Shown here piece by piece: positions 2,166-64,000 of a stretch of 64,000 bases of DNA. Source of the DNA: Tachypleus tridentatus (Eukaryota); NCBI RefSeq assembly GCF_004210375.1, contig NC_134837.1, forward strand, positions 230,377,567 to 230,441,566, written 5' to 3'. The notes beneath the pieces are model-generated. The model ran no database searches. It saw nothing but the letters and a program-made list of their open reading frames with translations, and had not been told where the DNA came from. A program made the position numbers and the translations under genes. The first letter of the stretch is position 1; the number at the start of each line of letters is the position of its first letter.

Positions 2166-2169
2166 GAAA

Positions 2170-24264: not shown

Positions 24265-25790
24265 TACACCATGTAACATAGAATTTGTTCCAGGATACTA
24301 TGGGTTATTTTTTAATTTCTTATGTTGTAAAAGTACAGAAAATGTCCATTTTTCTCTTCAAACTTTGCTTGTGTGACCTGGATAATGAAATTTAGAAATT
24401 AACGTATTTTCTATGTGAAAATGGGCAAACTTGCACTTTTCATTTACATGAGGTCTGAATAAAACAACATATGAATCAAGATTTACATGTATCTATATTA
24501 AAGTTATACAAAAATGAATAAAAATGTTTAGAAGTGAGTAGTTTTTCACTTATCAGCCCCCAAATATAATCTCGACATTCAACTTTGTTAGACCAAGATC
24601 TCTAATCAAGTCATTGAGGTCTCTTTGGTTAGGGTAGTATGAGTTTCTCTCACCATCTGCCCCTCTGAAATTGTAATCTGGATTTTCAACGTGTACTTCC
24701 TCTTCTGATTTGCTGCTCTTTTGTGAGGGTGGCTGCTTTCTCTCTGGTACAGTGGGTACAAAGGAGCTCAGGGCAGTGTGGCACTGGGGTGATGGATGAT
24801 GGAAAGTCGAGATATATGATAGCAGATGCATTCTTCCAAGCCTGACGTTTGGAAGGGTCCATCTTGCAGAAGTAGCAATTTCTTGAGTGGTCAGTGGGTT
24901 CACACCAAATTCTTGGAATAGCAAGTGTCATGGCTCTCTTTTCCCCTCTGCACCATCCCACAAAAGAGCAAAATAAAATTGTTATTATGAAGAATAAATT
25001 TATTTCATCCACAACTAATGTGTAAGAGGTTCATGCAAAATATTTTGTGATATTTTTTTCTATACTATAGGAAATTAAAAGAAAAAAAAAAGATATTTAA
25101 ATTTTAAAAGGTTTAAAATGTGTATAATATAAAATCTTACTATTCAAACAAACAGCAATTGTCTGTCTTACCTTCTAGAGTTTTTTTGCGGTCCTCATAG
25201 GTATAATAAGGTGCTCAGGGTTTGGCTTGATCCCTGAGAGGCATGCCGAAATATGTCTTGTAGGCTTCACATATTTTAGCAGATACTGTCACAGAGTACT
25301 TTTTTGCTCTTGTATTAATAGATTGGCTACATACATAGCAGAATGTATTTGGAGAATTCTTGCAGCTTCTTGATGCCACCTCTGATAAAATCAGATAGGT
25401 TTATGTGTTCACTTAGGCAGCTAGAACCAAACTGAAGTGGTGAGTGGTGAGCTCCTGTATATGTATTACTATGAAAAATTCAAGAAAATTCTTGTAAGTG
25501 CTACAACATTCTAGAAAACTCTTGCAAGTTTTACAACATTCTAGAAAATTCTTGTAAGTTTGAGAAAATTCTCTGTTAGCTCCTCAGCACTGAACCTACC
25601 TGGAATGTTTTGGAAAATGGGTAAGTTTGAAAATTTCATTACCCAGGTCAGAAAAGCAACATTTGAAGAGAAAAATAGGTCTTTTCCATTTACTTTAGGC
25701 ATAAGGAACTGGGAAATAACACTTTCTGCACAGGAACAAGAAAAAGTAAAATTTTGTTACATAGTGTTATGTATGAATTAGATCACCTGA
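24265..25790 (-). mobile_element. Interspersed repeat copy A (about 1.5 kb) encoding on the minus strand the N-terminus of a conserved repetitive metazoan ORF (…IPRIWCEPTDHSRNCYFC…NPDY…NQRDLNDLIRDLGLTKLNVE)
   Basis: About 88-90% identical at the nucleotide level to 48985-50940. The minus-strand ORFs at 24553-25012 carry a WxxPxDHxxxCYFC motif followed by an acidic/Ser stretch and a DLIRDLGL block. The 3' side carries 30-bp tandem repeats (CTAGAAAATTCTTGTAAGTTTTACAACATT). Confidence 0.7.
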
Positions 25791-39130: not shown

Positions 39131-40039
39131 ATTGCTTGTTAGTTAAAATATTATGCTATACTTTTAAAAGGATACCTGGGTTGAAAAGATTAAGTTTTAC
39201 AGTGTTTTTAATAATTTCATTAAAATTGAGCATGTATTTATGGACAGTTGATATGGTTATGAATTATCATATATATATATTATGGATCATATTTACGTTT
39301 AAACAACAAGGAATTATTAATTTATTAATTATGAACACTTAAAAACAAAGCTTCCAGTTTTTGTTGTAGTAACTTGTAATAACAGGATAAGACAATGTCA
39401 TTTCAAGTATATTTATCAACTTACAATAATTATTTCCTGCAAATGAAAGAAATATATAAATATAAAAGTTAGGTTATTATTATGCTTTTTATAAAAATAC
39501 AAAATATCACAATTCAACACTGTAATTTTCATTTTATTAACTTGAAAACTAATTTGATCATATTCTTTCCAAATCTGACATGTTATTGGAGTTGTAGGTT
39601 TTTGACGTAGGGGAGATAAAATTCAGACCCTTCAATGTGTACCTTAAGTTAAAGTATATGCTGGTATTGCAATGAAAATAGAAAGACATTATATAATACC
39701 TTGTTTCTCAACCTGGGTGAAATGCATTTAGATTGTAACAGACTAGACTGGGGCTAAATTGTCATTTTCTATAGATGATGTGATATGAATAATGGGAAAA
39801 GTTACTCAACTCTTAACATGGATTTCCAAGTGCAGCTCAAAATCTGAAGTAATATTTATTTGGCCCATAAGAGACCTTACTTTTACAGGTATTGTAGTAA
39901 GCAGATATTTTCAGTATAGAACATTTGTAGTATCAAATGATATATCTTTTAGGACCATACCATCACTTGTAGCCACCATTTTGCTAGCTTGCTGAATTTC
40001 ACAATATATGAACAATGAACACATACACTATATCTCTCT

Positions 40040-40600
40040 CAACGTGTGCTTGATCAATTTGACTGACCGCATCACTTCTTTATACTTGTTTAAAGTCTAT
40101 ATAGTTTTGATACTACTAACTTTTAATATAGTATGTATATCTTCATAAATTTTGGCAGACTTTGAGAAAACATTATAAGTCTTTCACATGCAAAAAAAAT
40201 TATATTTTTTAGTAAATTAAAAAAATATATATATGTGTAAATATATATGAAGTATATTTCATGACTAGTCTGCACACAAAGTGATTTTCATGTTAAGATT
40301 AAAAACACGTTTTAAGAGTTGATTTCTCTTTAACAAATTACCACTAACTGTTGTTGAAAACTTTTCACACAACCATCAGGACAAAAGTCTAAAAACTCAA
40401 CTCACAAACAAAATTGACACTAACACACCAAACAACAACCTGGCATTGCAATGCAGATTACCATTTATCTGTGACATTAGCTCAAAAAAAATCAACATTT
40501 GGAGCAAACTTGCCATTAAACATAAAATTCCTGTTGACTTCAAATTCACCTTAAAATCTGGACCTAAAATAAAATCTTTATTAAATAAAAAATACATAAT
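40040..40600. repeat. Partial third copy of the intron-5 duplicated segment
   Basis: 40040-40160 matches 37450-37555 plus 37823-37900 and skips the SINE. 40250-40330 matches 37940-38020. Confidence 0.5.
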
Positions 40601-43199
40601 ATCACAATACCAATGTCATTTATAAACCAGAATTCTACATACGAGACACCAGTAGAAAATGGAAACCAGATTCACTTAACAGAAAAAAATCCTTCCGTGT
40701 TTACTACCATTGCAACTAAAAAATACTCTTTGTATATCTATACAAAACATTGTAATTTGAAACTATGAACTGAACATTAATAAATGCAGAATAAAGGAGG
40801 CTATCATAATTGAACAAAACAGCTCCATCCTAATCCATCACATCAGTATAACAAAATATTTTGCTGAGCTGCAAAGCAATATCTGATCATGTAACCTCTT
40901 TGTTCCATACTGTATTTATATTTATATGTCTGTAAAATACTTTAAGTGGATTTCTTTCCATCAAATTTACTTTCAAAATTTAATTAAACTATATTTTGTT
41001 CCTGTGATACCATTCACTGTAGCAGGAAATCATAGTTAATAACCCATATCTTAATTGTATTTAAGTCTTAAGTTCTTCATTTTTTAAGGCAATATTACAA
41101 TAAACATCCAGAATTCCTCAAGAGTAAGAAATGTGACATTTTGTCTCTAGGCATCCCTGCTTCTCTAATGTACTTACCATCCCTCTAAGAAGTATGAAAT
41201 TTAATGTTTTGTTCACAAGTTGTATGTGTTAGCACCTAGCTTAGGCGTACGCACTATGAGTAGCTGTGTTCTTGATGAGGACCTTTTTCATCTTTAGTAT
41301 TCTTGACTCTGACACTGAGATTGTAAAATTTTCTGGTACACATGCAGTAATTTCTTATTACCCTAGACTTATGCAACTTGGAGCTTATGTAAACACAATT
41401 TAGCATGTCAGTAATGTTTGTTTGACAAGGTTTTGTTGCAGTAAATCTTAAATGACTTGTAACTTATCCATTATACCATTATTACTGGTTACTTGAACTG
41501 CAACTCTACTTAAATGACTTGTTGACTCTCCAAGAAAAAAAGCAATGTACATATATATATATAATAAGTTACATGTTATTTAGTTTGAGTTCCAAGTCAA
41601 AAAATTGTGATTTGAGTCCATGTTACTTGACTTGAGTTTACAATTTTGTCCAGCAACAGTTTGAACTTATTCTTGAGAGAAAATTTTATAAAGTGCACTT
41701 GCCTCATCATTTCACTACATATTTTTGTATTTTTGATATTTTTTTAGATTAAATTTTCTGTAGAGTATGAAGTTGAAACTTGTTGCAGAATAACATCATT
41801 TTCATGTGTAACATTCTCTGGAAAGGCAGTTTTGTCTTTTACATATGAATCTCCCAAACCATATCATCCTGTTTAACTTGTGTGTGTTATATTGAATAAC
41901 AACCTTGAAGCACATTACTGTCAGTATGGCTGAGATAGCTTTATTTGTTGTTGTTGCTTATAACAGTTATAAGTTAAGAATTATCTACAGGCACTGAAAT
42001 AGCATTTCCATCCCATTTTCTATTTGTGTGATATGTTTGACCATTTTAAGCCGTTCATGAGTTATCTTTCATTGTTCAATTAATGATGTTACAACATACT
42101 AAGTAATGCATATAGTACCGCTTTTAAGTATTTCTTTGTTACTTGATAATATATAATGGTTGTTTTGTGTATGTATCAGTTTTAATCTACTTTAAAGAGA
42201 TTGGACTGTAATTTACACCATTACTTACATTTATAGAAAACTCCATTTATTTTACTGTGCAAGATATTGTGTAATTAGTTATGTTATTGCCTGAACCCTT
42301 TGAATGCAGATATGTAAATGTAATTTTATCACAGTTAGCTGCAAAACAGCAGACAAAAATAAAAATCCATTTAAATTTTAAGTGGATGTTATAATAGTAG
42401 AATAACTCTTCTACTAGGAAAAAATTAATTATTAATAGCTGATGATCAACCAGAAAAAAAGATAATTAGCCAAGCTTCTACAGTGTTTGCTAGTAATGTC
42501 TTAAAGCATTACTATTGTAGTTTTCTTCAAAGTGATTAACATACAGATATTAGGTTAAAAACATTATTTCAGAAGCTTTTCAGTGTAACAGAATCAGTAT
42601 ATTTAATTACATCAGTTAATCTCAGACAGATAAGCCCTACACTTCATGCTGAAACTGTAAAATATATTATCAACAAGTGTTATAATGTCTAAGAAACATG
42701 AACTTCAAATTCTAAGAGAAATACAGAAATAGTACCTAAAATAGAACACATCAAAATTGAGACTGAAGAATTGGTTACATTCAACTAATAGCTGTTCTAA
42801 CATGAGATCTTAAGTAGTTAGAATGACTGAAAACTAATTTTGAGAAATTAGTTATTTTTGTGAGTTGTAATACTAATTTATGAGATCTTGAATTACTTAA
42901 ATGATAATGAGAAATCATAACAGTATTTTGTGTGCTTGGCTAGTTGGAACAATAAAAAACAATAATAATTAGTAACAATAATTTTTATTAATTGGTTATT
43001 TTTTGTCATGTTAATTGATTTACATGTGTCAAAGGCCATGTCATTGCATTTATTAACTTGCATTCAAAATTTTATTTAATTACTATGAATTTTGTCAATA
43101 AATTTATTTGGTATAAAATTGAAGTTTATAATTTACATTTTTGTAGTATTGAGTAGTTAATGTCTTATTTTAAAGATAAATAGTAAAAGAACATACCTA

Positions 43200-44400
43200 A
43201 ATATTGATTTTTTGTATCATGAGGAATGTGAATGCAGCACTGGTTCAAATGAGATGTTTCAAATGTCAAAATATTAAGTCTAGTTTCTTACGTATTAGTA
43301 ACCCAAAATACTTATATATCTTTTCTGTTTCCTGAGATATTCAGTAAAACTTTATATTTTGTTATTTTCTCTACCCTAACTCTGTACAAGGTGAGACACT
43401 TTGACTGAACTTTAACGACCAAAAATATATAAATAAACTAAATTATCCTTCTTTTTCTTTCTATAATGATATCAACATCAAATTGTAACATGAAACTATA
43501 TTTGTTTATCCTAAGTAGCTTTAAATTTGTAACACTATATATTTATTTATATTCAAATTTTATTGTTTTATTGCCTTTTAAACCCATCTCTAACTACTGC
43601 ACACACCATTATAAGTTAGAAATCACTTGGGAATGTGGAATTCATGTTATGCTAATAAATTAGATCACCCATGAGCTATTCTGAGCTGCTTTCATGAGTG
43701 CCTTGTGATAAATGTTTATTGTATTGTTATTATTATTACTTGTTTTTACCTGATCTTGCCTTAATTAACCAAAATGTTTATATATTTTAGTTAATTTTAT
43801 AGTAATAAATAAAGAATACACATTAAAAACAAGAAATAAAGTACTTGTCTGGACCTTCTTTATTTTCTTCTTGACTGTTGATGACACTGAAATCTACTTT
43901 TCTGTACTAACAATAGTAGAGCAATAAATAGTTTTTATTTAATTAAATAATGTACATAAAATAATATGTAAAAATCAGACATTATCCTGTAACTATTATT
44001 CTGACTTTCTAACTGTGTAACAAGAGTCATTACAAGTTCATCCAAAATTCTTTGAACAGAAAACAACATAATCTCATATGTCATTTAATAGATTAAAACC
44101 TTGGCTTTGTATTGGTTATAAGTGATATAGTATTAAATGTAAGAGACAAATCCTGAAAGAAATGATGTGACAGTTGAGAATGGCCTAATTTTCTGTTTGA
44201 TGGTTGAGTTTTATTGAAAACTGTAAAAGTTACACTTTCTCTTGGTGATAATGATTTTATATTGAATTATGTAAGTTAAATTTCATAATTATTGGAGGGG
44301 TGATGAACAAGATAAGATGTATAGAGAAAATGTGTTGCATTATGGGAAATTTGGGATTTTTAAAAACATTGCAATATATAGAATTCAAAACAGAAAACTT
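43200..44400. repeat. Intron-5 segmental duplication, copy 2
   Basis: See 37450-39130. Confidence 0.65.
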
Positions 44401-44866
44401 ATAAACTGTTAAAATGTGGAGTAGTAGCTATGTGTTTATTATTCTTTTTTAATTGGTATAACATAAACAAAAGTAGTTTAATTAAATTTTGAATGCAAGT
44501 CAATAAAAAACTCATAACATGCAGTAAAGGATGCCTGTGGTAAGAGGGTTAAAACCTCAGAATAAAATATCTGTATAATAAGTTTGAAAAACAATTTTTG
44601 TGTGCACCTTTAGTTCTTTTTAAGGAAATTTCAATTTTCTCTACAGTTCACATATGGAAATTACTAAATGCAAAGTTGCCAAATGTATAAAAATATATTT
44701 AAACATTGCATTAATTGTTTTTGAATCCTATTATATATATATAAATCTGGGTGTAATTATCCTTGTACATATTACTCTTTGTGTATGTTTGTGTGAATTA
44801 TTGTATCTTAAATGCATTAAAATGATTATAAACACTCAGTGAAGTTAATTGTTTTGCATTATTCAG

Positions 44867-45004
44867 CTCCAGAGTGAATGGAGCAAGACAGCTGTTAATG
44901 TGTCTCCAGAAGTTCTTGGCCTTGTGGATTTTCTCTGGACAGAAGCAATGGGTCACTTGACAACATTTTTATCTGTGCCACCTGCACAAATTCCTCAGTG
45001 GAAA
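44867..45004 (+). CDS. PARP4: PARP4-like exon 6: start of PARP alpha-helical regulatory domain (LQSEWSKTAVNVSPEVLGLVDFLWTEAMGHLTTFLSVPPAQIPQWK)
   Basis: Acceptor gttttgcattattcag| and donor AAA|GTGAGT. Phase 0 to 0. Aligns to human LSQEVSDLVEMIWAEALGHLEHMLLKPVNRISLNDVSK. Confidence 0.88.
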
Positions 45005-45860
45005 GTGAGTATGTTCTGACAATGACAGATGGTTTTTCAAACATTTTAAAAGCAAAGTTTGCAAATGACCAAAGAGCATAATGCAATTTTATCCTGATAT
45101 TAAAAGGTGAATCTGTCTGAACAATGGAAGTAAATATGTTCTGACAACAGAATACAAGTTTATCTTGAATTTGGAAAGAGATCTTGTTATAACATCATAC
45201 ACCAAATTTGTTTTTATGTTGCAAGGCAAGTATTAAAATTGGAAAGGAGCTTGTCCAGATGTTAATGGTATGGTTATTTTATTCTTATGTGAAAGAGTTT
45301 GTACAGGCAGTAACTGGTAGGCTTATTCTAATCTTAGAAAATAAATTCAGGTATTGAAAGATAACTTTGCTCAGGCATTAAAAGCTGAATTTATTTAGAC
45401 AGTGAAATGCAAGCTTTCTTTATATAAGAAAAACAAGTTTGTTCAAACAGCAGAAAACGAGTTATAAAATTTGATGGGAAATTTTTCATGTTGGAAATTG
45501 CATTTTCCTTTTGTAAAAAGTTTATTTAGACATTAGAAGATACATTTAGCTATTCAGTGTGATACAGTTTTGTCCTGACTTTATGACAGTGAATTTACTT
45601 GGAGAATGAACCATATTTTGTTTTGGACAGCAAATTTAATTTGATATTGGTGTGTGTGTTTATGTAGGCATATCAAAACAATTTTATTCTGACATTAGTA
45701 AATGGGTTTATTTTAACATAAGATGTGAAATTATCAAAGGGTTGAATACAGATTTGTTCTGACATTAATGACAAGTTTGCTTGACAGTAGAAGGTGACTT
45801 TGTTTCTGCATTAGAAGGTTAGTTTGTTGAAACACTAAGAGGGTGTGCTAAGACATTAAA
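45005..45860. repeat. Minisatellite, ~40-55-bp degenerate unit with core (A)TGTTCTGACA(A/T)…, starting exactly at the exon-6 splice donor
   Basis: The cores TATGTTCTGACAATGACAG, TATGTTCTGACAACAGAATAC, TTATTCTGACATTAGTAAATG and TTTGTTCTGACATTAATGAC, with related units, recur along 850 bp. Confidence 0.6.
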
Positions 45861-45994
45861 TTGTGAGTTATATATAAACTAGTGAACCAATACATTTATA
45901 GGGCTGCTACAATGCAAATTTACTGCTTAAGCAAGTATTTTGTACTTTTTTCAACTTAATGGTTATTGTTTCTGTAATGCAACTTTAATTTCTT

Positions 45995-46340
45995 TAGTGA
46001 AGCTATGAATGAAAATTAGTAGCCCTACCTATTTACATGCTCTTATGTAAGTCAGTGCCAAAGTAGGGTCCCCTTTTGAGGGTTTCACAAACCAATATTT
46101 TTGAGAAATACCTGATTTCCCTAAAGGGCTGAGTAAAACTTTTTGCCTTTGTGCAAACCTTGGGTTCAGGTGTTTGTTTGGAACCATTTAGAAGTTGGTT
46201 ATCCCAACAGTTTATGAAAAGGGATTTGGGGGAACCTTTGAATTCTCTAAGAGTTGGGGTTAAAATTCTACTTGTGGGGAACCCTTGAAGCTGAGAAAGT
46301 TCACTTAGTACTGTTTAGAAGCTGGTGCAGCCATCTGTTG
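45995..46340 (+). repeat. Interspersed repeat family X, copy 1 (paralogous to 60790-61055)
   Basis: Shared blocks TATTTACATGCT.T.ATGTAA, …TTTGCCTTTGTGCAAACCTT…, and ACCATTTAGAAGTTGGTTATCC/GGATCC. Contains an internal TTTGTGCAAAC direct repeat. Confidence 0.55.
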
Positions 46341-48054
46341 AGAAGGAGCTACACGACGTACAGATAGACACTGAATTTTATTTTATAGATTTTGTATGAT
46401 GTTATTGGAATTAATAAATAAACAAAATGTTTAGTGTTATTGAAATACTATTAGATACATTTACTATATTTTATGTTAATCAAACAAGGAAATATGTTTT
46501 TATTACTTACAGAAATAAATATATTTTACGATGAACTGTATTGAATTTATGTAAGTCAAAATTGATACATTTAATCAGATATCTGATTATATTTAGAAAC
46601 TTTTTAACATTTTTTTAAAAATTTAATTCAGTTCAACATTTATTTCTTCTCCAGTTATCACAAATATTGATTTGGGGCACTTGGAGCTGGAGAAGTTAAA
46701 AACTTAGTTTTTTTCCATTTAGTAGAGAACAGTGTTTGCTAATGTGGTGTAAGACAGATGTGTCCTTAAACTAGACAAATACAGATTTTTTCTAAACAAT
46801 TGAACATACAATTTTCTGGAATTGGAAAGTCTTTTAGATATTAGAAACTGAGTTTTGCACGTCATTTGGAAGTTATTTTGTCCAGACAAGGAAAGACAAG
46901 GTTGTTATGATGTTAGAATTTGAATATTTTGATTCTGGATTAATGAATGTTTATAACCATTTTTACCCTTGGTAGAAATCTTAATTTGCTTTGTCTATTG
47001 AAACTTATTTTTGATGTTATAAACTTCATTTGTGAATGTAATAGTAAAATGTTATTAGTAATGTATGTGAATATGAAAAGGATATTAACTGTACTGAGTG
47101 TTTAATTACTGTTACCATTTAAAAGAGTTTTGAATTTTTAAAAATAGCAAAGTTAACTTTTATGAACTAAATATTAAAAATAGTTTTTTAATTTTTTTTT
47201 CACAAGTTTTTTATCAGTTGTGTATGTAGTGTAACTTTTGTTTATTTTGTTCACTACTTTTCACCAGATTTATCCGAGACTAACATAAATTAATTAAAAA
47301 AAAGAAAATGAATCATGTGAGAATCTCAGGCAATAACTTATAGATTCTCACATAATTCCTTTTTCTAACACTGATATTGTCAGCCATGGGTATTGCTTCT
47401 TTTTTGGGTTGTTTTTCAACTCATCTGATTATTTTCAGGCAGTTAAAATAGGCCAACATTTTCAGAGCACTGAAACAATACAACTGACATTACAGGAAAA
47501 GTCTCCTGTGCATTTACTATGGAATCTGAAAATAATTGCAAAGTTAGAAAATGCTCTATCTATTCCAAATAGCCTTGATAGTGTTCCTGTGATATTTTAA
47601 TACCTGAAGTTAAGTTAAACAAAACTTGGGAAGGAAAAAAATCCTTCAGCAAATAAACACTCATTGAAACAAACTTAGATAAGAACTAAGAACTTATTAA
47701 GTACTTCTGAAGCTTATTCTGATGAAACATTGCAAGAAGGTTTCCCAACATAATCTAAAATTTTGTTCATCTTATGGATTAGATGGGAGTTTAGGAATTA
47801 TCTATTGTGGTTTAAACCACTAGTTTACACTAATGCTATTGAGTGTTTGTTGTCTTACAACTCTCCAATAAAAAGTTTTTCAACAAAAATTATATGGAAT
47901 CTTTCTCTCAGTTTTATAAGTTAAAATAGCCCATAAAGATGGGTTTCTGGTATGGATGATTTCATAGCACCAACAACCTGGTACTACAAAAATAAAAAAA
48001 TGAACTTAAATTTAAAATAAATAAAGATTTATTTATATAAACGTTTATTTACAG

Positions 48055-48231
48055 ATTGATGAAGCAGAAGGAATTTTGTCCCAACTTGAAAAACTCTTGA
48101 AAGAACAAAACATTAAGGATCTTATGGTGCGACTAAGTCAGGAATTTTACTCTGTTTTGCCTCATCATCCACAACATCAGTGTCCAATCTTAGACAAGAA
48201 AGTGTTAGTGCAGAAGCAAGACTTATGTCAG
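48055..48231 (+). CDS. PARP4: PARP4-like exon 7: PARP regulatory domain (IDEAEGILSQLEKLLKEQNIKDLMVRLSQEFYSVLPHHPQHQCPILDKKVLVQKQDLCQ)
   Basis: Acceptor tttatttacag| and donor CAG|GTTTGT. Clear alignment to human AEGILLLVKAALKNGETAEQLQKMMTEFYRLIPHKGTMPKEVNLGLLAKKADLCQ. Confidence 0.9.
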
Positions 48232-48984
48232 GTTTGTGTGGTGGAAAACTTAATTCATACTATCAGGTTTGACTTGCACATGCTGAAATGAGAAAAAGGA
48301 AAAGAGATCCAATATTATTGGAAGTTGTACACTTTGATTTGATTACTAAGTAAATAAATACTTTTCATTTATATATTTCTAATAGTTTAGAATCTGAAAT
48401 ATTCTAAAGATTTTGTTGTTGTTATTCTTTCAGTTACATATTTGAATTTGACTAACTTTTACAGTACTGTTTGGAGGTATTGCTCCTGCATGTTTTCTGC
48501 TTCAAGGGTCTCAAGTTGTGTTGAGTCCTAATGACCATATGAAAGACACTTATGCCATTTTGTTCCATTTAAAACATGAAACACGTGGCATATTTAATAT
48601 ACAATATTTATGTGTAATTTATAGTAGTAATACAACACAATAAAAAGTGGCTATTGACATAATTATATTCAGTTGACAAAGAAATTTTTATTATTGATTC
48701 AGTTTATAACATGTATGTTTCATGTATTAGATGAAGGTCCATGTAACCTCCATAATAAATCTATAACTAGTATTTTAGACCATGTTATTGCAAGTTATAG
48801 TCAATTATATATGCATATACTGAACAAGTTATAGAAAAAAAAATAAATTGCAAAAATAAAGTATGATATAAGGATAGCAATGCCAAAGAGCACAAACACA
48901 ATATAAGGATAAATACAAAAACAGAAAAAATCATACAAAATACATTACATAAGTAGCAGGTAAATACTGAGTCAATCTGACATG

Positions 48985-50614: not shown

Positions 50615-50940
50615 CTATAGAAGGTTCTAGAAAATTCTAAAAGGTTCTTGAAAATTCTTGTAAGTTTTACAACATCCTAGAAATTCTTGTAAGTTCTACA
50701 ACATTCTAGAAAGTTCTTGAAAATTCTTTTAAGTTTGAGAAAATTCTCTATCAGCTACTCAGCTCTGAATCAACCTGGAATATTTTGGAAATTGGGAAAA
50801 TTTGAAAATTTCATTACCCAGGTCTTTGAAAAGAAAAATAGGTCTTTTCCTTTTACTTTAGGCATAAGCAATTGGGAAATATCACTTTCTACCCAGGAAC
50901 AAGAAAAAGTAAAAGTTTTATTACATAGTGTTATTAGTCA
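48985..50940 (-). mobile_element. Interspersed repeat copy B (about 1.9 kb) of the same family as 24265-25790; contains a (TA)n microsatellite
   Basis: The minus-strand ORF at 49819-50124 reads MDEINLFFIITILFCSF…KFAIPRIWHEPTDHSSNCYFCMV…. A (TA)~20 run sits at 50572-50612. A 30-bp tandem repeat x about 4 sits at 50600-50740. Confidence 0.7.
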
Positions 50941-51449: not shown

Positions 51450-54000
51450 TTTGCTGTTTTTGTTCAAAGATCTAGCCAATTTCCCCTCTTTCATCACTCT
51501 CTCACAACTTGATCCTGGTATCAGTAGATGACAGCATGTTGGCAGTGACTGACTTTGTTGTCCAGGTAGCTGCTCACTCTATTTCTAGGACTTCATCATG
51601 TTTTCCACGGTGTCCACACCTATGAGAGAAACCTGCCTGTCAGGAGGCATGGAAGGCTCATAAACAGACTTGGGATACCCTTCACAGGTATCCCACTCAT
51701 TCAAACCACATTGCTTTCCAATGAGCCCATTCTTGTGCTTGGCAGGTTAGACATTAAGGCCAAAATGAATCTTGGATTAAGTTTACAACTGTCAACCATT
51801 TCAAAAGTCATATGGGATAAGATTCAGAAAGTCAATAGAAATAATTCTTTACATCCCCTTATCATCTTGCTCTTCACTGGACAAGGGAGTTCCTGATGTA
51901 TAGAGCATGGCTAATACTCTCAGTGAGAGCTTTTCTCATGCATGTAGCACTTCTGTTTCTTCTCATGCTTTCTTGGCCATCTAGTCTCTGGCAAAGTGAG
52001 CACCTCTGTCCTTTCTGGTTGATCATTTCTATGACTATAATTGCTCCTTTACACTGGTGAAACTTAAATTTGGTCTTCATTTATCTGGCAGTACTTTGGT
52101 CAGACCTGATGAGGGTTACTGTTAGATGCTGTACCATCTCTTTCATGCCTCTCTTGCTATTATTCTGGTTGTTTTTAACCTAATCTGGCAGAAAAATGTT
52201 TTTCTTAATACTTAGTGTCAGACTATTATCCTTTTTTTCTCTAAATCAGCGAAGTATCCCAAGATTCCTTCTAATCTTTGTCTAATTTATTTGGCAAGCT
52301 GTTTCTCTATGATCTTAGAGAGGATGATTAATGCTCTTCGTGTTTGGTTCCTTGAATCACATAACCTCCTCTCATCCATCCAGTATGGGTTTCATGGACA
52401 GCACTCCCACCATGCACCATTTTATTTTACTTCAAATTTTGATCAAGGAAGCTTTCCTCAAGGGAGAGCATCATGTTTATGTGTTCTTTGGCCTTGAGAA
52501 AGCTTAAAACAATATGTATTGAATTAGATTACAGTAAATGGTTTTACCTTTTCTTTTTCCAAAATCATTTGCATACATTTTTGCCACCAGTGGAGCCAAC
52601 TTCCTGGTCTCAAATACTGTCTCAGTGATGTTATTCTTCTTGTGGATCCTGAGGCAAAGTTCTTTGGACTTATCCTTTACTGTAAACTTACTTTTAGTTC
52701 TCACATAAAGCAGCTGTGTGTTATATGTACAAGGGCACTAAACATTCTCTATGTCCTTTTTTTTCACCTTTTTGGGCAGCAGATTGGTGCTCTGTACACA
52801 AGGTCTATGGTGCCATCATTTGATCCAAACATCATTATGGGTTTCTGGTCTATGGTTCTGTGAGGACCTTGGCCTTGAAGATGCTGGACCCCATTCACTG
52901 TCTTGTCTTTGACTTTCTATACAGGCTTTTCACAGTTTGTACACACAGTCCCATGAATATTCTCTTCACCTCTAGCATTTGCAACTTTTAATCTTTACCA
53001 CAACATACCATATGGGGTTGTATCTTTCTTCCTCAATGAGCCATGCTCTTTCAAAATAGATGGTCTGCAATTCCTGCTTTAGGCCTTCATATCCAGACAG
53101 AACTGAAAGAAATTAGTCTGGAATTGGAAGACATTGCTGTCCCTAATGATCAGTCCATTGCATCATGTCTTATTGCTATTCCCAGATGTGACCTTTCTTT
53201 GATTAAACCTGAAAAGGTGGATACGTCTAATTGAAATTACCACCTTCTCTTTGACGAACATCTTTTGAACCATCTTTCTATTCCCATTTATGCAGATGGT
53301 TTGAAAACTGATGACTCTCTGGGCTCTGCCATGGTTTGTTGTGGCAGAGTGGTTGCTCACAAAATTCACTCTGCAATTTCTGTGGTCATTACTGAGTTGT
53401 ATGCCATTTCTCTTGCCCTGGATCATGCAAAGGCAATGAAGCACACCAACTGTACTGTTTACACTGACTCTCTTCACATTAATACTTACCCTGTTCTCTT
53501 TAATATTCAATGACACTTGGCCCATTGTTTCTTCATATTCCATTGATAAAAAATTTTTTGATATCTGGCTATGTTGATATTTATAAGAACAAGCTTGCTG
53601 ACACTGAAGCTAAGTGTGTCTATTCTGGTGCTGTTATGGCCATTCCTTTTTGATATATGGACTATAGTCAGCTCTTGAAGACTCAACTTATTGCTAGTTT
53701 ACAGTCATCATGGTGTGAAAAATGTGATAACAAGCTTTTCCAGGTTAAACCTTTTGTTGCTCCGTAGCCTTCTTGTTTCTGTAATGATTGGAAGGAGAAA
53801 GTTGTCCTGGCTGGGCTACACAGTGGTCACAGTTTTCTTTTATCTGGGTCTGACCCGCCAACATGTGGCCTTTGTAAAACTCAAGTCACAATAACTCACA
53901 TTCTACTGTCATCCTGCCATTAAGATCGTGCTCAGCAGCACCAATTTCAGCAGGTCTTTTCCATGTGTTTACCCCTTACAGTGATGACGTCAGTGGTGAC
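51450..54000 (+). mobile_element. LINE copy 3 (same family): RT, RNase H and C-terminal Cys-rich tail; 5'-truncated and degraded
   Basis: Nucleotide homology to 1-2165 and 10440-11230. An RNase H block reads CGRVVAHKIHSAISVVITELYAISLALDHAKAMKHTNCTVYTDSL. The tail reads …NKLFQVKP… then a CxxC/HIL-like C-terminus near 53800-53920. Confidence 0.75.
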
Positions 54001-55026
54001 ACTGTCCAATTTAATTGTTTTTAAATTTTTATAGGCCATTGGTCTTTTTAATTCTGTTTAAGTTTTTTTTAATCTGCTTTTGGAAATTTTTTGGTTTTTA
54101 ACTTGATTTATTTTTATCTTGTATAATATTTTGGTTTTGTATTTTTACAACTTGCTTGACAAATAATAGCCTCATTGTTTTGCATCAGTAAGCAACAATT
54201 AGTTAATCTGTTTTAGTTGGTGTTCTTATTGTATTGTTATATTTGAAAGCCATTGGACTCCATTCTAAAGACAGCAAGGGTCTCAAGTTGCTTCTTTTTG
54301 AATGCCTATTGATTCAACCAGTTTCATGATTTAGTGGCAATTTCAAATGTAAATGAAACAACCTGAATCCCCATGAGTAAGATAACCTTCCACTAAAGAT
54401 ACAAAATATTTCATTTCTCATACTTATTTGTGCCACCAACTATACATTGCTAGGTAAGCAGAAACCAGCCATAACAACCCTTTTCTTTGTACAAAGTGTG
54501 GTGAGGGCAAAGTGATATATTATTGAGGAAAATGTTTTCCCTCTGAGTGTCCTTAAGTAAAATCCTTATATAAGACTGGTTTGTACCACTAATTCTCTGT
54601 TGAATCTAGTTCTTCAAAAAATTTATTGTTTTTGATTCTACTTCAAACCTGCTTGACCAAATATTTATGTAACTGCTAAATATGTTATTTGTGATATCAT
54701 GTTCACGTAACTGTATTATTAGCATATGCAACTCATTCTTATATAGGGTTATTAATTCTTTTCCATTGCTCATACCTTTGTAAGAACACAGCACCAATAC
54801 ACACTGTGTGCACATCTATGTAAGGATATAACAATTATATCTGTAGCATACACACATATACATCTATAATAATACAGAAATTGCACTTATATTCACATGT
54901 AACACACATACTTCTGTTGAAACAAAAAAATGGTACGTGAAGGTAGCACACACTTCTAACAACATAGTAACTACATTCAAAATTTGCATATACATTTAAA
55001 AACATATTTTATAAAACTTTTTGTAG

Positions 55027-55187
55027 GTTCTTCGAGATATGGCCTCAGTAAGTGAGACAACAGGTTGGATGACAGAGGGACGACAATATGCAAAGTATCA
55101 AGCTCTTCGATGTCACATTACCTACCTGCATGAAAGTAGTGAAGAATATGAAAGAATTAAAGGCCATATCTTAGAATCACAAAAGAG
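55027..55187 (+). CDS. PARP4: PARP4-like exon 8: end of regulatory domain (VLRDMASVSETTGWMTEGRQYAKYQALRCHITYLHESSEEYERIKGHILESQK-)
   Basis: Acceptor tttttgtag| and donor AG|GTAGGA, leaving in phase 2. Aligns to human LIRDMVNVCETNLSKPNPPSLAKYRALRCKIEHVEQNTEEFLRVRKEVLQNHHSK. Confidence 0.88.
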
Positions 55188-56048
55188 GTAGGAAATGAAA
55201 ATACTTTGTAATGTAAAGAATGTGTCTGAACTTATGTGCAAGTCTCACAAGTGTAAACTCACATATAAGTGCTTTTACTTTTTGTTGCAGTGTAAAACAT
55301 TGTCACTGCTGTAATGATTACATTTATAATAGAACAAAAAAATTTGTTCTGCTGAAATGATTTCAGACTATGAATGAGTCATTCCATGTTAATTCAACCA
55401 TTGTGTGCTACATCACATTGCAACATTTTGTGGATTTTTTAAATGTTTATTCTTTGTTCTATTAATAGCAATTATGCAAAATGTAAGCATTTTATAAGAC
55501 TTTACTGAATAATATAAACTTAACATTTCTCATAACCTCTACTATAAAGCAGCCATAATTTGATAATTTGTTTAAGTTGTTGAAATTCTGTACATTTGTT
55601 TTGAAAAAGTAAGGTGAGGTGTGGCCCAAAGTTGAATTGACATGGAATGATTCAAGCAAACTTCAGGAGGTCTAACAAAAAAAAATACAAAAAAAATACA
55701 GTGCACCTATTTGAAGTAAATATAAATTCATAAATTTAAAAATGTATTTCAATAAAATATATATAACTGTATCTTTGACTGAAATTTAAATCTAGAATTT
55801 GTATGTTTATAGATTAACTTCAAAACTTGAGGTTATAAATAAAGTATTAAAAAATATATATCCGTAAATTTGTAAATAAGTTTTGGAACATGAAACATGA
55901 ATTGAGTAAGAAAGTGTGTGCTACAGTAACTGTGTAAAGTGTATAAATGATTGTATACCCAGTTTTTAAAAATTACAACTTTGTATTGCTGAGTTAATCA
56001 TGTTGTAAGACATTTGTGTATGATGCATATATAGAAGGAACTGAGGTC

Positions 56049-56306
56049 AATGGCCTAATGGTTACTGTGCTGGGATGGCAATCTAAACATTCATGGCTAA
56101 GCTTCCATCAACAAAAAATTTTACCCTTCACTTTGGAGACATGGTGCATTATATAAGAATGTTTAAACTCTTCTATTCAGTTAGGGTAGCAAAAAGTTGT
56201 TACTGGGTGCTGTTCAGTAATTGTCTTTTTATTAGTCTTAAGTGCTTAAAAATAAGGGTGGCTAGTGTAGATAACCCTCATTTAGCTGTGGACAAATTTT
56301 TAAAAC
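56049..56306 (+). mobile_element. tRNA-derived SINE, copy 2 (diverged)
   Basis: Shares the 3' tail GGTGGCTAGTGTAGATAACCCTCAT and the central block GGTAGCAAAAAGTTGTTACTGGGTG with the copy at 37553-37822. Putative TSD AGAAGGAA/AGAAGGTAA. Confidence 0.6.
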
Positions 56307-56510
56307 AAAGAAGGTAATTTCAATGGGATATAATTATTGTATGTGTTTTTGTACTCTAAAAGGTTTATAACATGTATGGTGACTAATTATTCTGCTAATA
56401 TATTTGTAAGTTGTTTGATACAAAACATCTTATCTTTCTGAAAAACATTGATATCATTTTGTAAGTAAAGATTTCTTGATTACAGCAGAAGTTTGTAATT
56501 ATCTTTCTAG

Positions 56511-56747
56511 GGATACTGGCATACAGGTCCACAACATCTTTTGTGTACAGAGAGATATAGAAACTGCAGAATTTTTCTATCATCTGTCTAATCACAAAGA
56601 ATTGTATCATGCCACACGTTCTGAAAACTTGGTGGGAATCTTGTCTCGGGGTCTTCATCCTCCAGTATCTGTACAAACTGAATATGATGAAAATCAGACA
56701 GATGTAGACATGTTAGGAGCAGGAATATATTTTGCTGATTCTGCGAG
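56511..56747 (+). CDS. PARP4: PARP4-like exon 9: PARP catalytic domain part 1 (…ELYHATRSENLVGILSRGLHPPVSVQTEYDENQTDVDMLGAGIYFADSA)
   Basis: Acceptor atctttctag| and donor GCGAG|GTACTT. Phase 2 to 2. Aligns to human PLLHGSPVQNIVGILCRGLLLPKVVEDRGVQRTDVGNLGSGIYFSDS. The catalytic His and the nicotinamide-stacking Tyr are present. Confidence 0.9.
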
Positions 56748-57049
56748 GTACTTTTTGTTAAAGAAATAGTTAATTCAGATAAAAGAAAGTACTTGTGATT
56801 ATAACCTTCCTGTGCAACTAATGTCACAGACAGACAGTCTATTTTTCTTTATTTCAGAATTAATTAAGAAGAAATTGGTTAACACAGTGTAATGTATCAC
56901 TGTATTGATGAATCTGTAATTTAAGTTGGACAAGTTTTCAATGGATATGAACTATTTTCAGAGTTTTGTTAACAACAGTTACCATCTGTCTCTGAAACTT
57001 TTTCAAAATAGCATACTTATTCTCGTTAAAACATTATAGTTAATAAAAA

Positions 57050-57441
57050 CAGAGATATATGTAATGTACAAATTAATGCATGAAATAATAGATATTTAAA
57101 AGAAATTTCATGAATATAGGATATAAGAATAATTGGTACTTGTTATTGATTTCAGTACTTGCATAAAGTACTCTAACAGAGAGAGATATGTAATGTACAA
57201 ATTAATGCATGAAATAATATAGAGATATTTAAAATAAATTTCATGAATATGGGGTATAAGAATAATTGTAACTTGTTATTGATTTCAGTACTTGCATAAA
57301 GTACTCTAACAGAGAGAGATATGTAATGTACAAATTAATGCATGAAATAATATAGAGATATTTAAAATAAATTTCATGAATATGGGGTATAAGAATAATT
57401 GTAACTTGGTATTGATTTCAGTACTTGCATAAAGTACTCTG
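57050..57441 (+). repeat. Tandem array, 133-bp unit x about 3.0, spanning the intron-9/exon-10 junction; each unit carries a 3' splice site (…TTGATTTCAG|TACTTGCATAAAGTACTCT)
   Basis: TTTCAG ends at 57155, 57288 and 57421, with identical 20-nt downstream sequences. Only the third continues as the open exon-10 frame. The first two run into …AACAGAGAGAGATATGTAATG… with an in-frame TAG. Confidence 0.85.
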
Positions 57442-57605
57442 ACTTTTGCAAAGAACGAGGAACAAGATTTCTTTTGGTATGTAAAGTAGCTCTGGGCAAA
57501 ATTTATGAAACATACATGTTTGATACTACTCTGACATCTCCTCCAGAGGGTTTTGATAGTGTTCAAGGTGTTGGTAACTCTGAAATCAAGAAGTCTTATT
57601 TTATG
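57422..57605 (+). CDS. PARP4: PARP4-like exon 10: catalytic domain part 2 (STCIKYSDFCKERGTRFLLVCKVALGKIYETYMFDTTLTSPPEGFDSVQGVGNSEIKKSYFM)
   Basis: The acceptor is the third of three tandem tttcag| sites, at 57421. Donor ATG|GTAAGT. Aligns to human STSIKYSHPGETDGTRLLLICDVALGKCMDLHEKDFSLTEAPPGYDSVHGV. Confidence 0.88.
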
Positions 57606-60600
57606 GTAAGTGAAATAAATTATCTGACCTTTCATGATGAAAAAAACATTTACAGTCACGGTACATGCATGTTAGTTTCATTTTATTTTAGGGTATTTAT
57701 TTGAAGAGTTTGATTTAGCATATGTTTATGTTTTCATAAGAAATGGAATTAATTTTTCATTTTTAATGGAAGCAAATGTATTGGTACTTAATTCCACTGG
57801 ATACACTCTTGTTTATTGTAACAAACTGATCAAGTGTTAATTTCAATAATTATTTTAATTTGCTAATGATTTTTTATTGGAAACAAGTTATATTGACTTC
57901 TACTGGAATTTTATTATAATGAATTGACTTTATAATAACTTCTATGAGAAGTTATTAATCATTTATTGTTTGTATGTAATCTTGAACATATGTGAAAGCA
58001 TTGAATTTCAAAATAATAAACTGAGATAGGCTTGAATACCACCAGTTGTGGTCTGTGTACAGGTTTACAATTTGCATGTGAACTTTTTGGAGAGAGGGAC
58101 CCCACATTTTTGTAGGACCTTCTTATATGTTTAATAATTCACAATCTTTTTTTATATTTAATTATTTCTTAGATATTTACAAATATGATTTACTATGATA
58201 CCTTTGGTTAAGCCAATATTATAGTTTTTTCCTACAATACCTTCTTTTCAGAATGGGTTTTTCTTGTCACCCATTGCACTGTCTTATAGTGTTTGGTTCC
58301 TCAGGACCCACCACAGTGTTGTTCCACTTTATTCCATTGGGGTCCTGAAGTCCTTGCCACTTACCAGCTCCTAGCTGCTGGAGTGGAGCTCAGTGAAGGC
58401 TTCTTTCAGAGTGTGATCATTTCCATTCATTTGAGACTTGGGTGGTTGTGATCAGTTGATGTAGATGGTGAATACTCTCCTCCTACTGAGGAGCAGAACA
58501 CAAATTTTAATGCTGCCTGGTTTTGGACTAGATGAATCCACCATAAGCAGTTCACCCTTTCAGCTGGTTTTCCTCTCTCCTTTTGCTGCCTGAATGTTGA
58601 TTCCTAGGTGGTGTCTGGTTTTGATATGTTCTGACATCAAGCAAATAAACAAACAAAAAAAAAAAATTACATAAAAGCAGTATTTGTGTATAGAGATTAT
58701 GGTCTTGTAGTCATTGATGGAGATTTCTCCAAACTGAAAGTAAAACAACTACGGGTGAAATACTCAAAACTAATTTCATTTAAATTGTCACTAAATATCT
58801 TTAATGAAAGTAAAACAGATGAAGCACTCAAAACTAAGTGCATTTAAATTGTCACAAAGTAAGTTAATAAGTATACCCTTTTTACAATTTATTTCTGAAC
58901 AAACTGCAGAACCATTGTGATTAAAGGATTATAAAGTAGCATTCATTTCTCAAAACAAAATTGCTAACCAGTTACAAATACTCAAAAACCTAAAAAAGAT
59001 TGAATATAATGATGGAATATATCAACTTAGATGCAGTTGCAGTAAAATGTACATAGGATAAACAAGAAAGAAATTAAGAACAAGAATGAATGAACATCAG
59101 TTTTGTATAAAACATGGTAACATGCTGTAGTCAAACATTTCTGGATCTATGACAGTACTTATGACTCTAATAATGTAAAAGTTTTAAGATGCATACAGAA
59201 TAACACAGAAAGAAACTTGAGAGAAAGTATATACTTAATAACAGATACCTGTGTATAAGCAGAGGTCATTGGCCAATAAATGTCCCTTTAGAAGACCTGT
59301 TCATCATAAATATTCTAGCATATATGACTTACCTTCCCACATGTATCTTGATCTTGTTTTTTTCAAAAGCAAACTTTCCCAGTTGAAACTAAATTTTACT
59401 TAACTGATACTGTAGAATTTTACTTTGATGATGGTAAAACTAATTGGCTGTGAGTTATATTAAGTATTTGTACTTATCATTGTGCCAAAAAAATGTCGTT
59501 TGTTTGTTATTGTTGCTCTTAATAAACCAGAACATAAAACTGTCATAGAACAAGCCAGAATAAATCTTCCTACAACAGTATGCACAAAAATTGATGATGC
59601 TGTGTGACTTTGGACTTGTGTTAACCCACCACAACCAACAAAAATAAACATGGGACAGATGGAGTGAGGTCTCCTATGAGTTTGGCCTTAGACATTAGCA
59701 TATCTGACTCCATGGGGTTTCTTAGTATGTGTTTTCTGAAGAGTGCTCATTTAGGTAATTTTACCACCAGACCTTCCATCTTTTCAGTGTAGGATTGTAA
59801 CTATTATGCGAGTGGAGTTAAGGTGTTGTATTAGAATTAACATTTTACTGCACTGAAAATTTTTTTCTAGTTTGTACTTACTTCTTCTCACACTTTCCAT
59901 CTTTTCCACTTCCAGTGCATCTTTTTTTCCTCTAATCTTGAAATGCATATTGTGCTCTACAGTGCAATGACATTAATCTATACTGCAAGGGTGTGTTGCA
60001 TTCCTGTTGGTGAAGGGCTGTTGCATGCTCATTTGCATGCTACCGTGCAGCTATACCAGCTGTATACCACATGAAGTTAGGTAGGGTAGGAGTCTTTAAG
60101 GTAATGGCAAGTGACAACTGCACATATAAAAGGCAACACAAATCAAGGAAAGCTGTTATGGGAGGAGAGGTAAGTATTTATTGGAAATACATTTCCATTG
60201 TAGGAAAATGTTAACTTTGTAAAGCATTGGTGAGATGTGAATTTATGCTATGTGAAAATTAAGAAACTAAAATTAAAAGCCCTTTAACACAATATAAATT
60301 AGCACTATGGAAATATTGGGCTCTTATTAATCATTGTGCTCAATAATTGACAGCATTTAACTAATGGATTATTATCCACCTGTCTGAAAACAAAAACCTG
60401 TTCTTTTAAAGAAACTTGACAGATAAAGTACCATATCATTATTCAGGCAATACAAACCAACATAAAATATGTTGGAAGTACAATAAAATCACTGAGCACA
60501 TACACTGGTATTACTCAGTAATCAACATCCATGAAGAATGTTGGAAATACATAGGCACTTCAAAAGTGTTAAAGCAGCAGCATTTATGATATGAATGTCT

Positions 60601-61888: not shown

Positions 61889-62069
61889 GACAATGAATTT
61901 GTTGTGTATGATAAAAATCATCAACAGCTGTGTTACTTAGTGGAGTTTTCCATACCAGAGGAACAGAGTTTAATTTCTATGGACTTATATTTCTATAGAT
62001 GTGATGTTAAAGATGCGTTTTTATGTAAATTGCCATTTGATGAAAAAGAAATATTTGAGTACAATACTA
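61889..62069 (+). CDS. PARP4: PARP4-like exon 11: catalytic domain part 3 with catalytic Glu (DNEFVVYDKNHQQLCYLVEFSIPEEQ…)
   Basis: Acceptor gttgtttcag| and donor ACTA|GTAAGT, leaving in phase 1. Aligns to human DDEFVVYKTNQVKMKYIIKFSMPGDQ. The catalytic Glu of the E-F/Y-V-V-Y motif is conserved. Confidence 0.88.
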
Positions 62070-62477: not shown

Positions 62478-62620
62478 ATATTGATGATGTCAGTAATGTC
62501 GAAGATTCATTGACTAAGGTGACTGTTGGTCTACAGATGTTAGATTCTTCAGGTCAGCAATTATCTCTGCCTCTTCAAACAGTTCATGTTCGAGCTCAGA
62601 TGTTTGACTTAGTGTCTAAG
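62478..62620 (+). CDS. PARP4: PARP4-like exon 12: start of VIT domain (NIDDVSNVEDSLTKVTVGLQMLDSSGQQLSLPLQTVHVRAQMFDLVSK)
   Basis: Acceptor ttttgttttctag| and donor AAG|GTTTGT. Phase 1 to 0. Aligns to human GLQDASGNLVPLEDVHIKGRIIDTVAQV, the VIT domain N-terminus. The gene continues beyond 64000. Confidence 0.85.
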
Positions 62621-64000
62621 GTTTGTTTATGTTTCTCACATGCTTCTTTTCAAGTTGATTTGCCTTAATGTTAAAGAAGAAAGAATAGTTTTTCATGTTA
62701 AACAACAGTTTTTAAGTTGTTTGTTAAGGTTGAAGAACAGTACATTGTATGATTTGAAGAACAGTTTTTCTTCCAAGTTTAAGGATAGTTATTATAATTT
62801 AATTAATCTTTAAGAATGGTTGTTTTCAGAATGGTTTAAGATGCATGTCTGAATAACACTTTTTTCAGTTGAAGAATGTCTTTTTTTACTAGTTGATGAA
62901 AAGCTGGTTTCAAGTCATCATTCTTTAAGAAATTTTATCAAATTAAAAACAGTTTTTATCATTTTAATTAGTGTTCAAGAACACTTTTTGTTATGATAGT
63001 TTATAATTTAAATTTATATTCAGGTTGAGTTTAAGTGATTTTTATTGTTATTAGTGAATGCTATTTTCAAAGAGAAGAAAGTGGATTAAATTGTCTAAAG
63101 AAAACTTAGTAAAAGGATAGAAAGACTACATTTCAATCTACTGAAGTGTTTTGTCAGGTTACATATCTGTTTTCTAGCTTGTTTTTACATGCTAAATAAA
63201 ATTTTTTATTTGTTCTTAGGATTTGTTCATTGCTCCTAGAGAATTTGAATTCACAATCATATAGTTTCTGTACGTAATTTCTGTTTAATCTGTTTCTGTT
63301 TAATCATTCTGTCTCTAATATGTTTACGTTCTTTGAATTTATTTTGCATTGTTGTTTTTGTTATCAATATTCTAAAGTTGTTTTAGTTATAGTGGCTTCC
63401 AGAGTCAATGGCATGCTATGGTGTGGCTAGATTTGTGTATTCATGAAAAGGTTGTTTCTTTATTCACAACTCCTACTGTAGGATTCTATTTATGAAAAAA
63501 TTACTTTTAGTTGTTATGTCTTCTCACTTTTTAAGAAGTATCATTCCAGATTTAAATCTATTTTGAGATTTGTAAGACTTGAATTTAAAGCACTTGTCTT
63601 TTTCTTAACTTCCTGAAGCATTAGTGGTGAGATGATAACCTTGTAGTATGTAACATGAATTTTCTCAACCCAAATGAGCTGTTTTACATGTATATTTTTC
63701 TCTACAAGTGGGTTTTCTTGACATCACTGAATATACATGAGTTCATCTACACATTTGCACGTTAAATATTTGCACCATAATTTTTGATACATCATGTGTG
63801 TTTTCACAAAATTTGGTGAACTTTTAGTAAAAATTACAACTCACTGAAATCTATATTTGGATGTGCTATTTTAATATTTACTCTTAAATTAAGAAATTAA
63901 CTTGTGTATAATATTAAAGTTTGAACTATTATCTACAATTTGATTTTAAACTTATTGAAATAAATTCATAAAATAGTAATTCAATAAAATTTCAAATGCA

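Follow-up and report, generated by a model that had tools for sequence, protein, structure and literature searches.

The window analysed here is a stretch of 64,000 nucleotides from the horseshoe crab Tachypleus tridentatus, in which an exon of a PARP catalytic domain is preceded by three consecutive and nearly identical 3' splice sites. The question raised by this locus is whether the two upstream acceptors, termed decoys below, serve the gene in some way or are merely carried along with it. A first-pass annotation of the DNA had suggested that they may form a regulatory poison-acceptor cassette. The reading preferred here, with a probability of roughly 0.62, is that the array is a young, lineage-specific tandem duplication and a tolerated, incidental variant, in which the decoys are silent or give a minor leak and no switch has evolved.

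The PARP4 host gene and the anatomy of the array

The host gene is a homologue of PARP4 (vault PARP). The encoded protein contains the Pfam domains BRCT (5.8e-10), PARP_reg (9.5e-09), and PARP (2.4e-30), and its top relative of solved structure is human PARP4 (8sx1, E 8.7e-47), with PARP1 at about 1e-14. Twelve exons lie within the window, and all of them are open. The map starts with exons at about 4814-5179, 13533, 24056, 31749, 32563, 44867, 48055, and 55027, and continues with exons 9 to 12. The catalytic triad is complete, as exon 9 encodes the His (LYHATRS) and the Tyr (GIYFADS), and exon 11 encodes the Glu (DNEFVVY). The exon numbering of the first-pass annotation (9 and 10) agrees with this map, and its placement of the array inside the catalytic domain, between the exons with the Tyr and the Glu, is correct as well. 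The features of this part of the gene are as follows.

56511-56747, + strand: exon 9, with the His and Tyr of the triad; donor GAG/gtactt at 56747/56748; phase 2; gap-free to human PARP4
56748-57421, + strand: intron 9, 674 nt with the authentic acceptor, 408 or 541 nt with a decoy
57422-57605, + strand: exon 10 (184 nt), STCIKYSDFCKERGTRF...KKSYFM, within the PARP catalytic domain
61889-62069, + strand: exon 11, with the catalytic Glu in DNEFVVY
62478-62620, + strand: exon 12, linker and start of the VIT-like region after the catalytic domain; matches proteins P0002 and P0004

Exon 12 aligns with the region leading into the VIT domain of P0002 and P0004, both of which carry VIT in Pfam, and the more C-terminal part of the protein lies beyond the window. 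The nearest database protein is that of Limulus polyphemus LOC106457063 (RefSeq model P0001), with 80-86% identity. Protein database searches with exons 8-12 and with exons 1-7 returned P0001 as the sole close relative, and yielded neither transcript-derived ORFs of Tachypleus nor a second horseshoe-crab PARP4-like protein. An exact-ORF look-up of two window ORFs that overlap the array region gave no match in public assemblies. Compared with the Limulus locus, Ka/Ks is 0.28 and Ks is 0.205 over 642 codons, with all exons open, which indicates that the PARP4 gene is under purifying selection.

The composition of the window is uneven. Positions 1-4800 and 6000-14000 have a GC content of 0.36-0.42 and strongly negative GC and AT skews, and the remainder has about 0.29 GC. 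Two short tandem arrays, at 25478-25572 in intron 3 and 50618-50727 in intron 7, have a unit of about 29-30 nt and share essentially one unit, …AAATTCTTGTAAGTT(T/C)TACAAC…, which points to a dispersed element that itself contains tandem repeats. Intron 7 also contains, at about 52000-53900 on the + strand, a cluster of broken ORFs with GC up to 0.39. The ORF at 53265-53513 has a sub-threshold match to RVT_3 (RNase H-like; E 0.0096, 16.3 bits against a cut-off of 21.6), and the cluster is possibly a decayed retroelement.

The array in front of exon 10 is the top-scoring tandem repeat that Tandem Repeats Finder reports in the 64-kb window, and the sole one that touches an exon. At 57051-57440, it has a period of 133, a copy number of 3.0, 95% matches, and a score of 703. 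The approximately threefold repetition of a 133-bp unit, as first described, is thus confirmed by the repeat search and by alignment of the copies. The unit comprises the final 111 nt of intron 9 and the opening 22 nt of exon 10, arranged head-to-tail three times over 57051-57443. The earlier description of the unit was right about the acceptor; the exon portion had been given as 20 nt, and it is 22 nt, made up of 19 nt and a 3-nt AAC/GAC junction microhomology. The copies and their boundaries are as follows.

57048-57050, + strand: AAC to the left of copy 1, from the sequence and the alignment of the copies
57051-57177, + strand: repeat copy 1 (127 nt), the most diverged, 92% identical to copy 2; decoy acceptor AG at 57154-57155
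57178-57310, + strand: repeat copy 2 (133 nt); decoy acceptor AG at 57287-57288; ancestral base at both sites that differ from copy 3
57311-57443, + strand: repeat copy 3 (133 nt); authentic acceptor AG at 57420-57421 and first 22 nt of exon 10
57175-57177 and 57308-57310, + strand: unit-terminal AAC, with GAC at 57441-57443; the 3-nt junction microhomology

The intron part of the unit, about 111 nt long, terminates in ...AATAATTGTAACTTGTTATTGATTTCAG, and every unit finishes with TTTCAG/TACTTGCATAAAGTACTCT(A/G)AC. The splice-site consensus that is reiterated in the units is ...TTATTGATTTCAG/TACTTGCATAAAGTACTCTRAC, with the exon-intron boundary inside the unit as in the human F7 IVS7 repeat. 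Potential exon starts are found at 57156, 57289, and 57422, and the spacing to the last is exactly 266 and 133 nt, the distances at which the decoys had been proposed to lie. The copies are 92-98% identical. Copies 2 and 3 share 98.4% identity and differ at 2 of 128 positions (57409 and 57441), and copies 2 and 1 share 92.5% and are separated by five substitutions and two indels. Two substitutions are private to copy 3.

No dispersed copies of the 133-nt unit occur elsewhere in the 64-kb window or in the 72-kb Limulus locus, and the unit is therefore not a dispersed element; a transposable-element origin was rejected on this ground. A tandem exon duplication with mutually exclusive exons is ruled out as well, since only 22 nt of the 184-nt exon were copied and stops are present in all frames.

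Reading frames and strength of the competing acceptors

Exon 9 ends in phase 2 (…GCG AG/gt). When it is joined to 57422, the frame stays open (STCIKYSDFCKERGTRFLLVCKVALGK...), and the product of the 56747-57422 junction, …GAGIYFADSASTCIKYSDFCKERGTRFLLVCKVALGK…, aligns across the junction with human PARP4 (…GSGIYFSDSLSTSIKYSHPGETDGTRLLLICDVALGK…). It is the spliced product of exons 8-11 that gives the E value of 8.7e-47 to 8sx1, and this alignment has no gap at the exon 9/10 junction. When exon 9 is joined to 57156 or 57289, the product is STCIKYSNRERYVMYKLMHEII followed by a stop, a TAG after 22 codons, and the remaining two frames of the extra copies are likewise closed by stops. The claims that only the last copy is productive and that a TAG follows after 22 codons from the phase of exon 9 both hold. 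At least three exon junctions lie downstream of the decoy-derived TAG, as is the case for a premature stop in a poison cassette subject to nonsense-mediated decay. The features that follow the decoys are as follows.

57220-57222, + strand: in-frame TAG after the acceptor at 57155, from sequence and translation
57353-57355, + strand: in-frame TAG after the acceptor at 57288, from sequence and translation
57190-57195, + strand: donor-like GTAATG, 34 nt past decoy acceptor 1, repeated at 57323-57328; ATAT/GTAATG, 5/9 of the U1 consensus

The donor-like GTAATG could in principle define a frame-shifting micro-exon of 34 nt. A 12-nt in-frame micro-exon that ends at AAA/GTACTC is conceivable, with a weak donor, and is pure speculation. 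In-frame rescue of decoy use was rejected, as all three frames contain stops and the 34-nt micro-exon breaks the frame.

A productive mRNA must thus be spliced at the third acceptor (57421). Use of a decoy would add 133 or 266 nt, shift the frame, and expose the TAG far ahead of the later exon junctions. Nonsense-mediated decay removes transcripts with premature stops, and the decoy transcripts are predicted to be substrates of it.

The three acceptors are closely matched. Positions -12 to +19 are the same in all copies. The decoys have 11 pyrimidines out of 17 and the authentic site has 10 out of 17, compared to 8-13 out of 17 in the other acceptors of the gene. The one additional purine of the authentic site is a derived T to G change at 57409 (-13, in the pyrimidine tract). 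A candidate branch site at about -18 reads TGTAAC in copies 2 and 3, TGGTAC in copy 1, and TGTAAT in Limulus, and no AG lies between the candidate branch motif and the acceptor. Judged on these features, the decoys match the authentic site in intrinsic strength or slightly exceed it. Decoy 2 retains the ancestral acceptor sequence, and the slightly weakening change at -13 was gained later by the authentic site; the sequence of the sites alone therefore gives the authentic one no advantage.

The surroundings of the acceptors differ. The exon-10 donor is 318 and 451 nt away from the decoys and 184 nt from the authentic acceptor, and behind each decoy, only 22 nt of exon precede AT-rich intron. 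By exon definition, the authentic acceptor would be preferred, as it is followed by a complete exon and lies closest to the exon-10 donor. In experiments with duplicated 3' splice sites of beta-globin, published by Reed and Maniatis in 1986, the amount of adjacent exon and the proximity of the site reportedly decided the outcome. For this reason, decoys with 22 nt of exon are expected to be disadvantaged, and the third site is expected to win. The gene is intact and constrained, with Ka/Ks of 0.28 and all catalytic residues present, and the authentic acceptor is therefore presumably used to a useful extent. The activity of the decoys may lie anywhere between silence and a constitutive minor leak, which would come mainly from copy 2, copy 1 being already mutated.

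The unit has no Rfam match at E values up to 1, and no fold better than that of shuffled controls (z-scores of -0.4 to -1.5), so a known RNA or structured element was rejected. A near-palindrome of 19 nt, AGTACTTGCATAAAGTACT, is present at 57154-57172, 57287-57305, and 57420-57438, and reaches from the acceptor AG through exon position +17. It can form a hairpin with a 7-bp stem (AGTACTT/AAGTACT) and a 5-nt loop, of about -6.7 kcal/mol with flanks; in Limulus the palindrome is imperfect and the hairpin is not conserved. The acceptor region TTGATTTCAG (57412-57421) is also a perfect complement to 10 nt near the 3' end of exon 10, CTGAAATCAA (57580-57589). The same 10-nt complement is found in Limulus (62957-62966 and 62789-62798 of the locus sequence), and the arm TTGATTTCAG occurs at each decoy acceptor too. 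The complement may reflect chance and coding constraint.

Comparison with Limulus and the origin of the array

The locus used for comparison, L001, is the Limulus polyphemus locus of P0001 with 10-kb flanks (72 kb; GCA_000517525.1, KI894477.1). LOC106457063 is the only related locus compared, and is either an orthologue or a recent ohnologue. Window positions 54492-57047 align to 60048-62685 of L001, and window positions 57686-58055 continue from L001 63055. All three window copies align to a single site, L001 62935-63036. The first-pass annotation had pointed to copy number in related species as informative, and Limulus has one copy of the unit as assembled, a count that is based on a locally scrambled short-read draft in which collapse of a repeat is possible. 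The same intron is present at the same position. Over the unit, the window copies are about 80-86% identical to Limulus and 92-98% identical to each other, and a 21-nt stretch that is common to all three is missing from Limulus.

Between the two aligned parts, a block of 369 bp (L001 62686-63054) is inverted in place without a gap. It comprises all of exon 10, preceded by the last part of intron 9 and followed by 80 nt of intron 10. Once re-oriented, it lines up collinearly, from intron 9 into intron 10, with the window reduced to one unit, and its exon 10 is open, with 85% protein identity. Because the block with exon 10 is inverted in the draft, the RefSeq model of LOC106457063 ends after exon 9, in an alternative terminal exon of 9 codons (…ADSARYELFSEYC and stop; YELFSEYC and stop; L001 62581-62608). 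The annotated 530-aa Limulus PARP4-like protein is probably an artefactually truncated model.

Other parts of the Limulus gene are rearranged too. Over L001 46292-55939, compared to window 40005-48780, many blocks of 0.2-2.7 kb are permuted and some are inverted. In the draft, exon 7 (L001 46366-46548) precedes exon 6 (48706-48849), and exon 7 is missing from the RefSeq model. As many further blocks of the gene are out of order in this draft, the inversion is taken as a probable misassembly, which is what the Limulus rearrangements in general probably represent. No flanking inverted repeats that would explain the inversion were found. The left breakpoint of the inversion is about 15 nt from the start of the repeat, and a shared rearrangement hot-spot was considered; it was rejected, as the draft is probably misassembled and the coincidence is weak.

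With Limulus as the outgroup, the changes can be assigned to the copies. In copy 1, two places are derived: the candidate branch site, where TGTAAC became TGGTAC, and a G-run further upstream, where TGGG became TAGG. In the lineage of copies 2 and 3, the G-run grew from GGG to GGGG. The changes private to copy 3 are the T to G at -13 and an A to G at 57441 (exon position +20, Asn to Asp), and copy 2 has no changes since the second duplication. Copy 1 is the oldest of the three. Since the copies are more alike among themselves than to Limulus, and share the 21-nt stretch, both duplications appear to post-date the split from the Limulus sequence, barring strong concerted evolution.

Asian and American horseshoe crabs separated about 130 My ago (PMC7011531). 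A rough clock, in which Ks of 0.205 over about 130 My is applied to the 5 and 2 substitutions between copies, would date the duplications very roughly to 25 and 10 My ago, with very wide Poisson limits and a downward bias if gene conversion has taken place. An array of this age could leave intact decoys that are readable as tolerance or as utility.

The junctions give an indication of the mutational mechanism. AAC is present on both sides of every junction (…AAAAAC/AGAGA… and …CTCTAAC/AGAGA…), and the exon itself continues as …CTCTGAC/TTTTGC. This points to microhomology-mediated slippage or template switching. Under the preferred reading of a tolerated duplication, a 133-nt segment over the intron 9/exon 10 boundary would have been duplicated in two rounds, by replication slippage or template switching between the AAC microhomologies. 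The outcome would be two additional, self-contained 3' splice-site modules, each with a branch candidate at -18, a pyrimidine tract, CAG, and 22 nt of exon. The near-palindrome AGTACTTGCATAAAGTACT, whose end is 3 nt short of the junction, might have promoted polymerase stalling, which is speculation. Intron gain after the Rogers model does not describe this array, as 111 of the 133 nt are pre-existing intron and the intron has the same position in Limulus.

Alternative readings and comparable systems

An error of the assembly, either an erroneous expansion or a wrong copy number of a single intron-exon junction, has to be considered for any tandem repeat, because such repeats are error-prone in assemblies, and copies 2 and 3 differ at just 2 positions. 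The three copies are told apart by substitutions and indels, unlike stutter artefacts, and the surrounding gene is collinear and intact, in contrast to the Limulus draft. As every copy is distinguishable, an artefact is very improbable. Loss or reduction of function is unlikely, and would mean that the first or second acceptor dominates and that this PARP4 copy is down-regulated or on its way to a pseudogene, perhaps in a tolerated manner. It would fit with the strength of the decoys, with the use of the upstream acceptor in a human BRCA1 junction duplication, and with the shortness of intron 9 (408-674 nt). First-come-first-served choice, or intron-definition pairing over a short intron, could favour a proximal acceptor, and the whole-genome duplications of horseshoe crabs might make such a loss tolerable. 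The state of the gene argues the other way, since each of the twelve exons is open and the His-Tyr-Glu triad is intact, and the protein database searches revealed no back-up PARP4-like protein of horseshoe crabs. The Ka/Ks of 0.28 argues in the same direction, although it is averaged over about 130 My and is blind to recent relaxation.

The regulatory poison-acceptor cassette that had been proposed at the outset found no support. In such a cassette, a trans-acting factor would choose between decoy and authentic site and tune PARP4 by splicing coupled to nonsense-mediated decay. Intact decoys that match or slightly exceed the authentic site in strength, and the early in-frame stop that follows them, are what such a device would need, and the array has perhaps persisted for millions of years by the rough clock. 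Deep conservation is typical of the regulated poison cassettes that are known, and conservation beyond neutral expectation was not observed here, as Limulus has one copy (in a draft that is locally misassembled) and the window copies are 92-98% alike and younger than the split. A regulator would also find little to discriminate. Because the array arose by simple duplication, the competing sites share their cis elements; decoy 2 differs from the authentic site at 57409 and 57441 only, and the unit has no RNA family and no significant fold. In addition, copy 1 is gathering changes in its candidate branch site and G-run. Taken together, a regulated cassette is quite improbable. A narrower form of the idea, a recent dosage valve for the vault PARP in which a factor binding the pyrimidine tract or the G-run would shift the choice of acceptor, for example on immune activation of hemocytes, is very unlikely; if true, it would be a regulated poison 3' splice site caught soon after its birth by tandem duplication. 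Decoy exons composed of an acceptor and a donor have been proposed in retained introns of human erythroblasts, and each unit here offers an acceptor and, after 34 nt, ATAT/GTAATG. The reiterated acceptors and the GTAATG could then occupy spliceosome components unproductively and favour retention of intron 9 over the use of alternative acceptors. With a donor-like site that matches only 5/9 of the consensus, and no conservation in Limulus, this mechanism is hardly to be expected.

The tolerated duplication has its closest natural analogue, as far as the comparison can be drawn, in intron 7 of human F7. A 37-bp minisatellite there reiterates the 5' splice site, and the pseudo-sites are functional yet silent (Borensztajn et al. 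2006, PMC1557585). In both cases, the tandem repeat element includes a splice junction, and near-identical copies of the site lie beside the authentic one, which makes a natural system for studying splice-site choice. The F7 repeat copies a 5' site and its copies lie downstream in the intron, whereas the PARP4 array copies a 3' site with the branch region and 22 nt of exon, and its copies lie upstream. The units also differ in length (133 nt against 37 nt), and for F7, polymorphism as a VNTR is documented and expression data exist, while the PARP4 array is read from one assembly.

A tandem duplication of BRCA1 intron 9 (395 bp) and exon 10 (1617 bp) gives a transcript that keeps the duplicated piece of intron and has a premature stop (PMC11839443). 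As in the PARP4 array, an acceptor was copied with its upstream intron and the exon start, and the predicted decoy product has a premature stop too. The upstream copy in BRCA1 has a 1.6-kb exon and thus a full exon context, in contrast to the 22 nt of the PARP4 decoys. The BRCA1 duplication is a private, pathogenic germline mutation, while the PARP4 array belongs to a reference assembly, and its age is probably in the millions of years.

In Drosophila tra, the proximal 3' splice site opens onto a stop and is blocked by Sxl, and SR-protein genes have poison cassettes. These systems resemble the PARP4 array in that a premature stop results from the upstream acceptor and functional protein from the downstream one. 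Their cis elements are distinct and conserved, whereas the PARP4 sites are near-identical and the array is missing from Limulus. The constructs of Reed and Maniatis are similar in that tandem acceptors, identical or nearly so, compete for one donor; they were artificial and studied in mammalian extracts, while the PARP4 array is a natural chelicerate locus. The Rogers model also starts from a short intragenic tandem duplication that adds splice signals, and the correct pair of sites preserves the coding sequence (Hellsten et al. 2011, PMC3265369). There, an exonic AGGT is duplicated and a new intron is made. In PARP4, a pre-existing acceptor is multiplied within an existing intron, and the extra copies would be removed with it.

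The PARP4 array adds nothing new on PARP4 biochemistry, and its physiological consequence is probably small. It is a new example of a known event, in which pseudo-splice sites are created when a segment spanning a splice junction is tandemly duplicated, and it shows how alternative 3' splice sites and unproductive isoforms can draw their raw material from small tandem duplications. If real, it is a natural experiment of 3' cis-competition, in which three near-identical modules face one donor and differ mainly in the true exon that follows. Junction counts would reveal how the chelicerate spliceosome weighs order, proximity, and exon context, and would complement the 5' case of F7.
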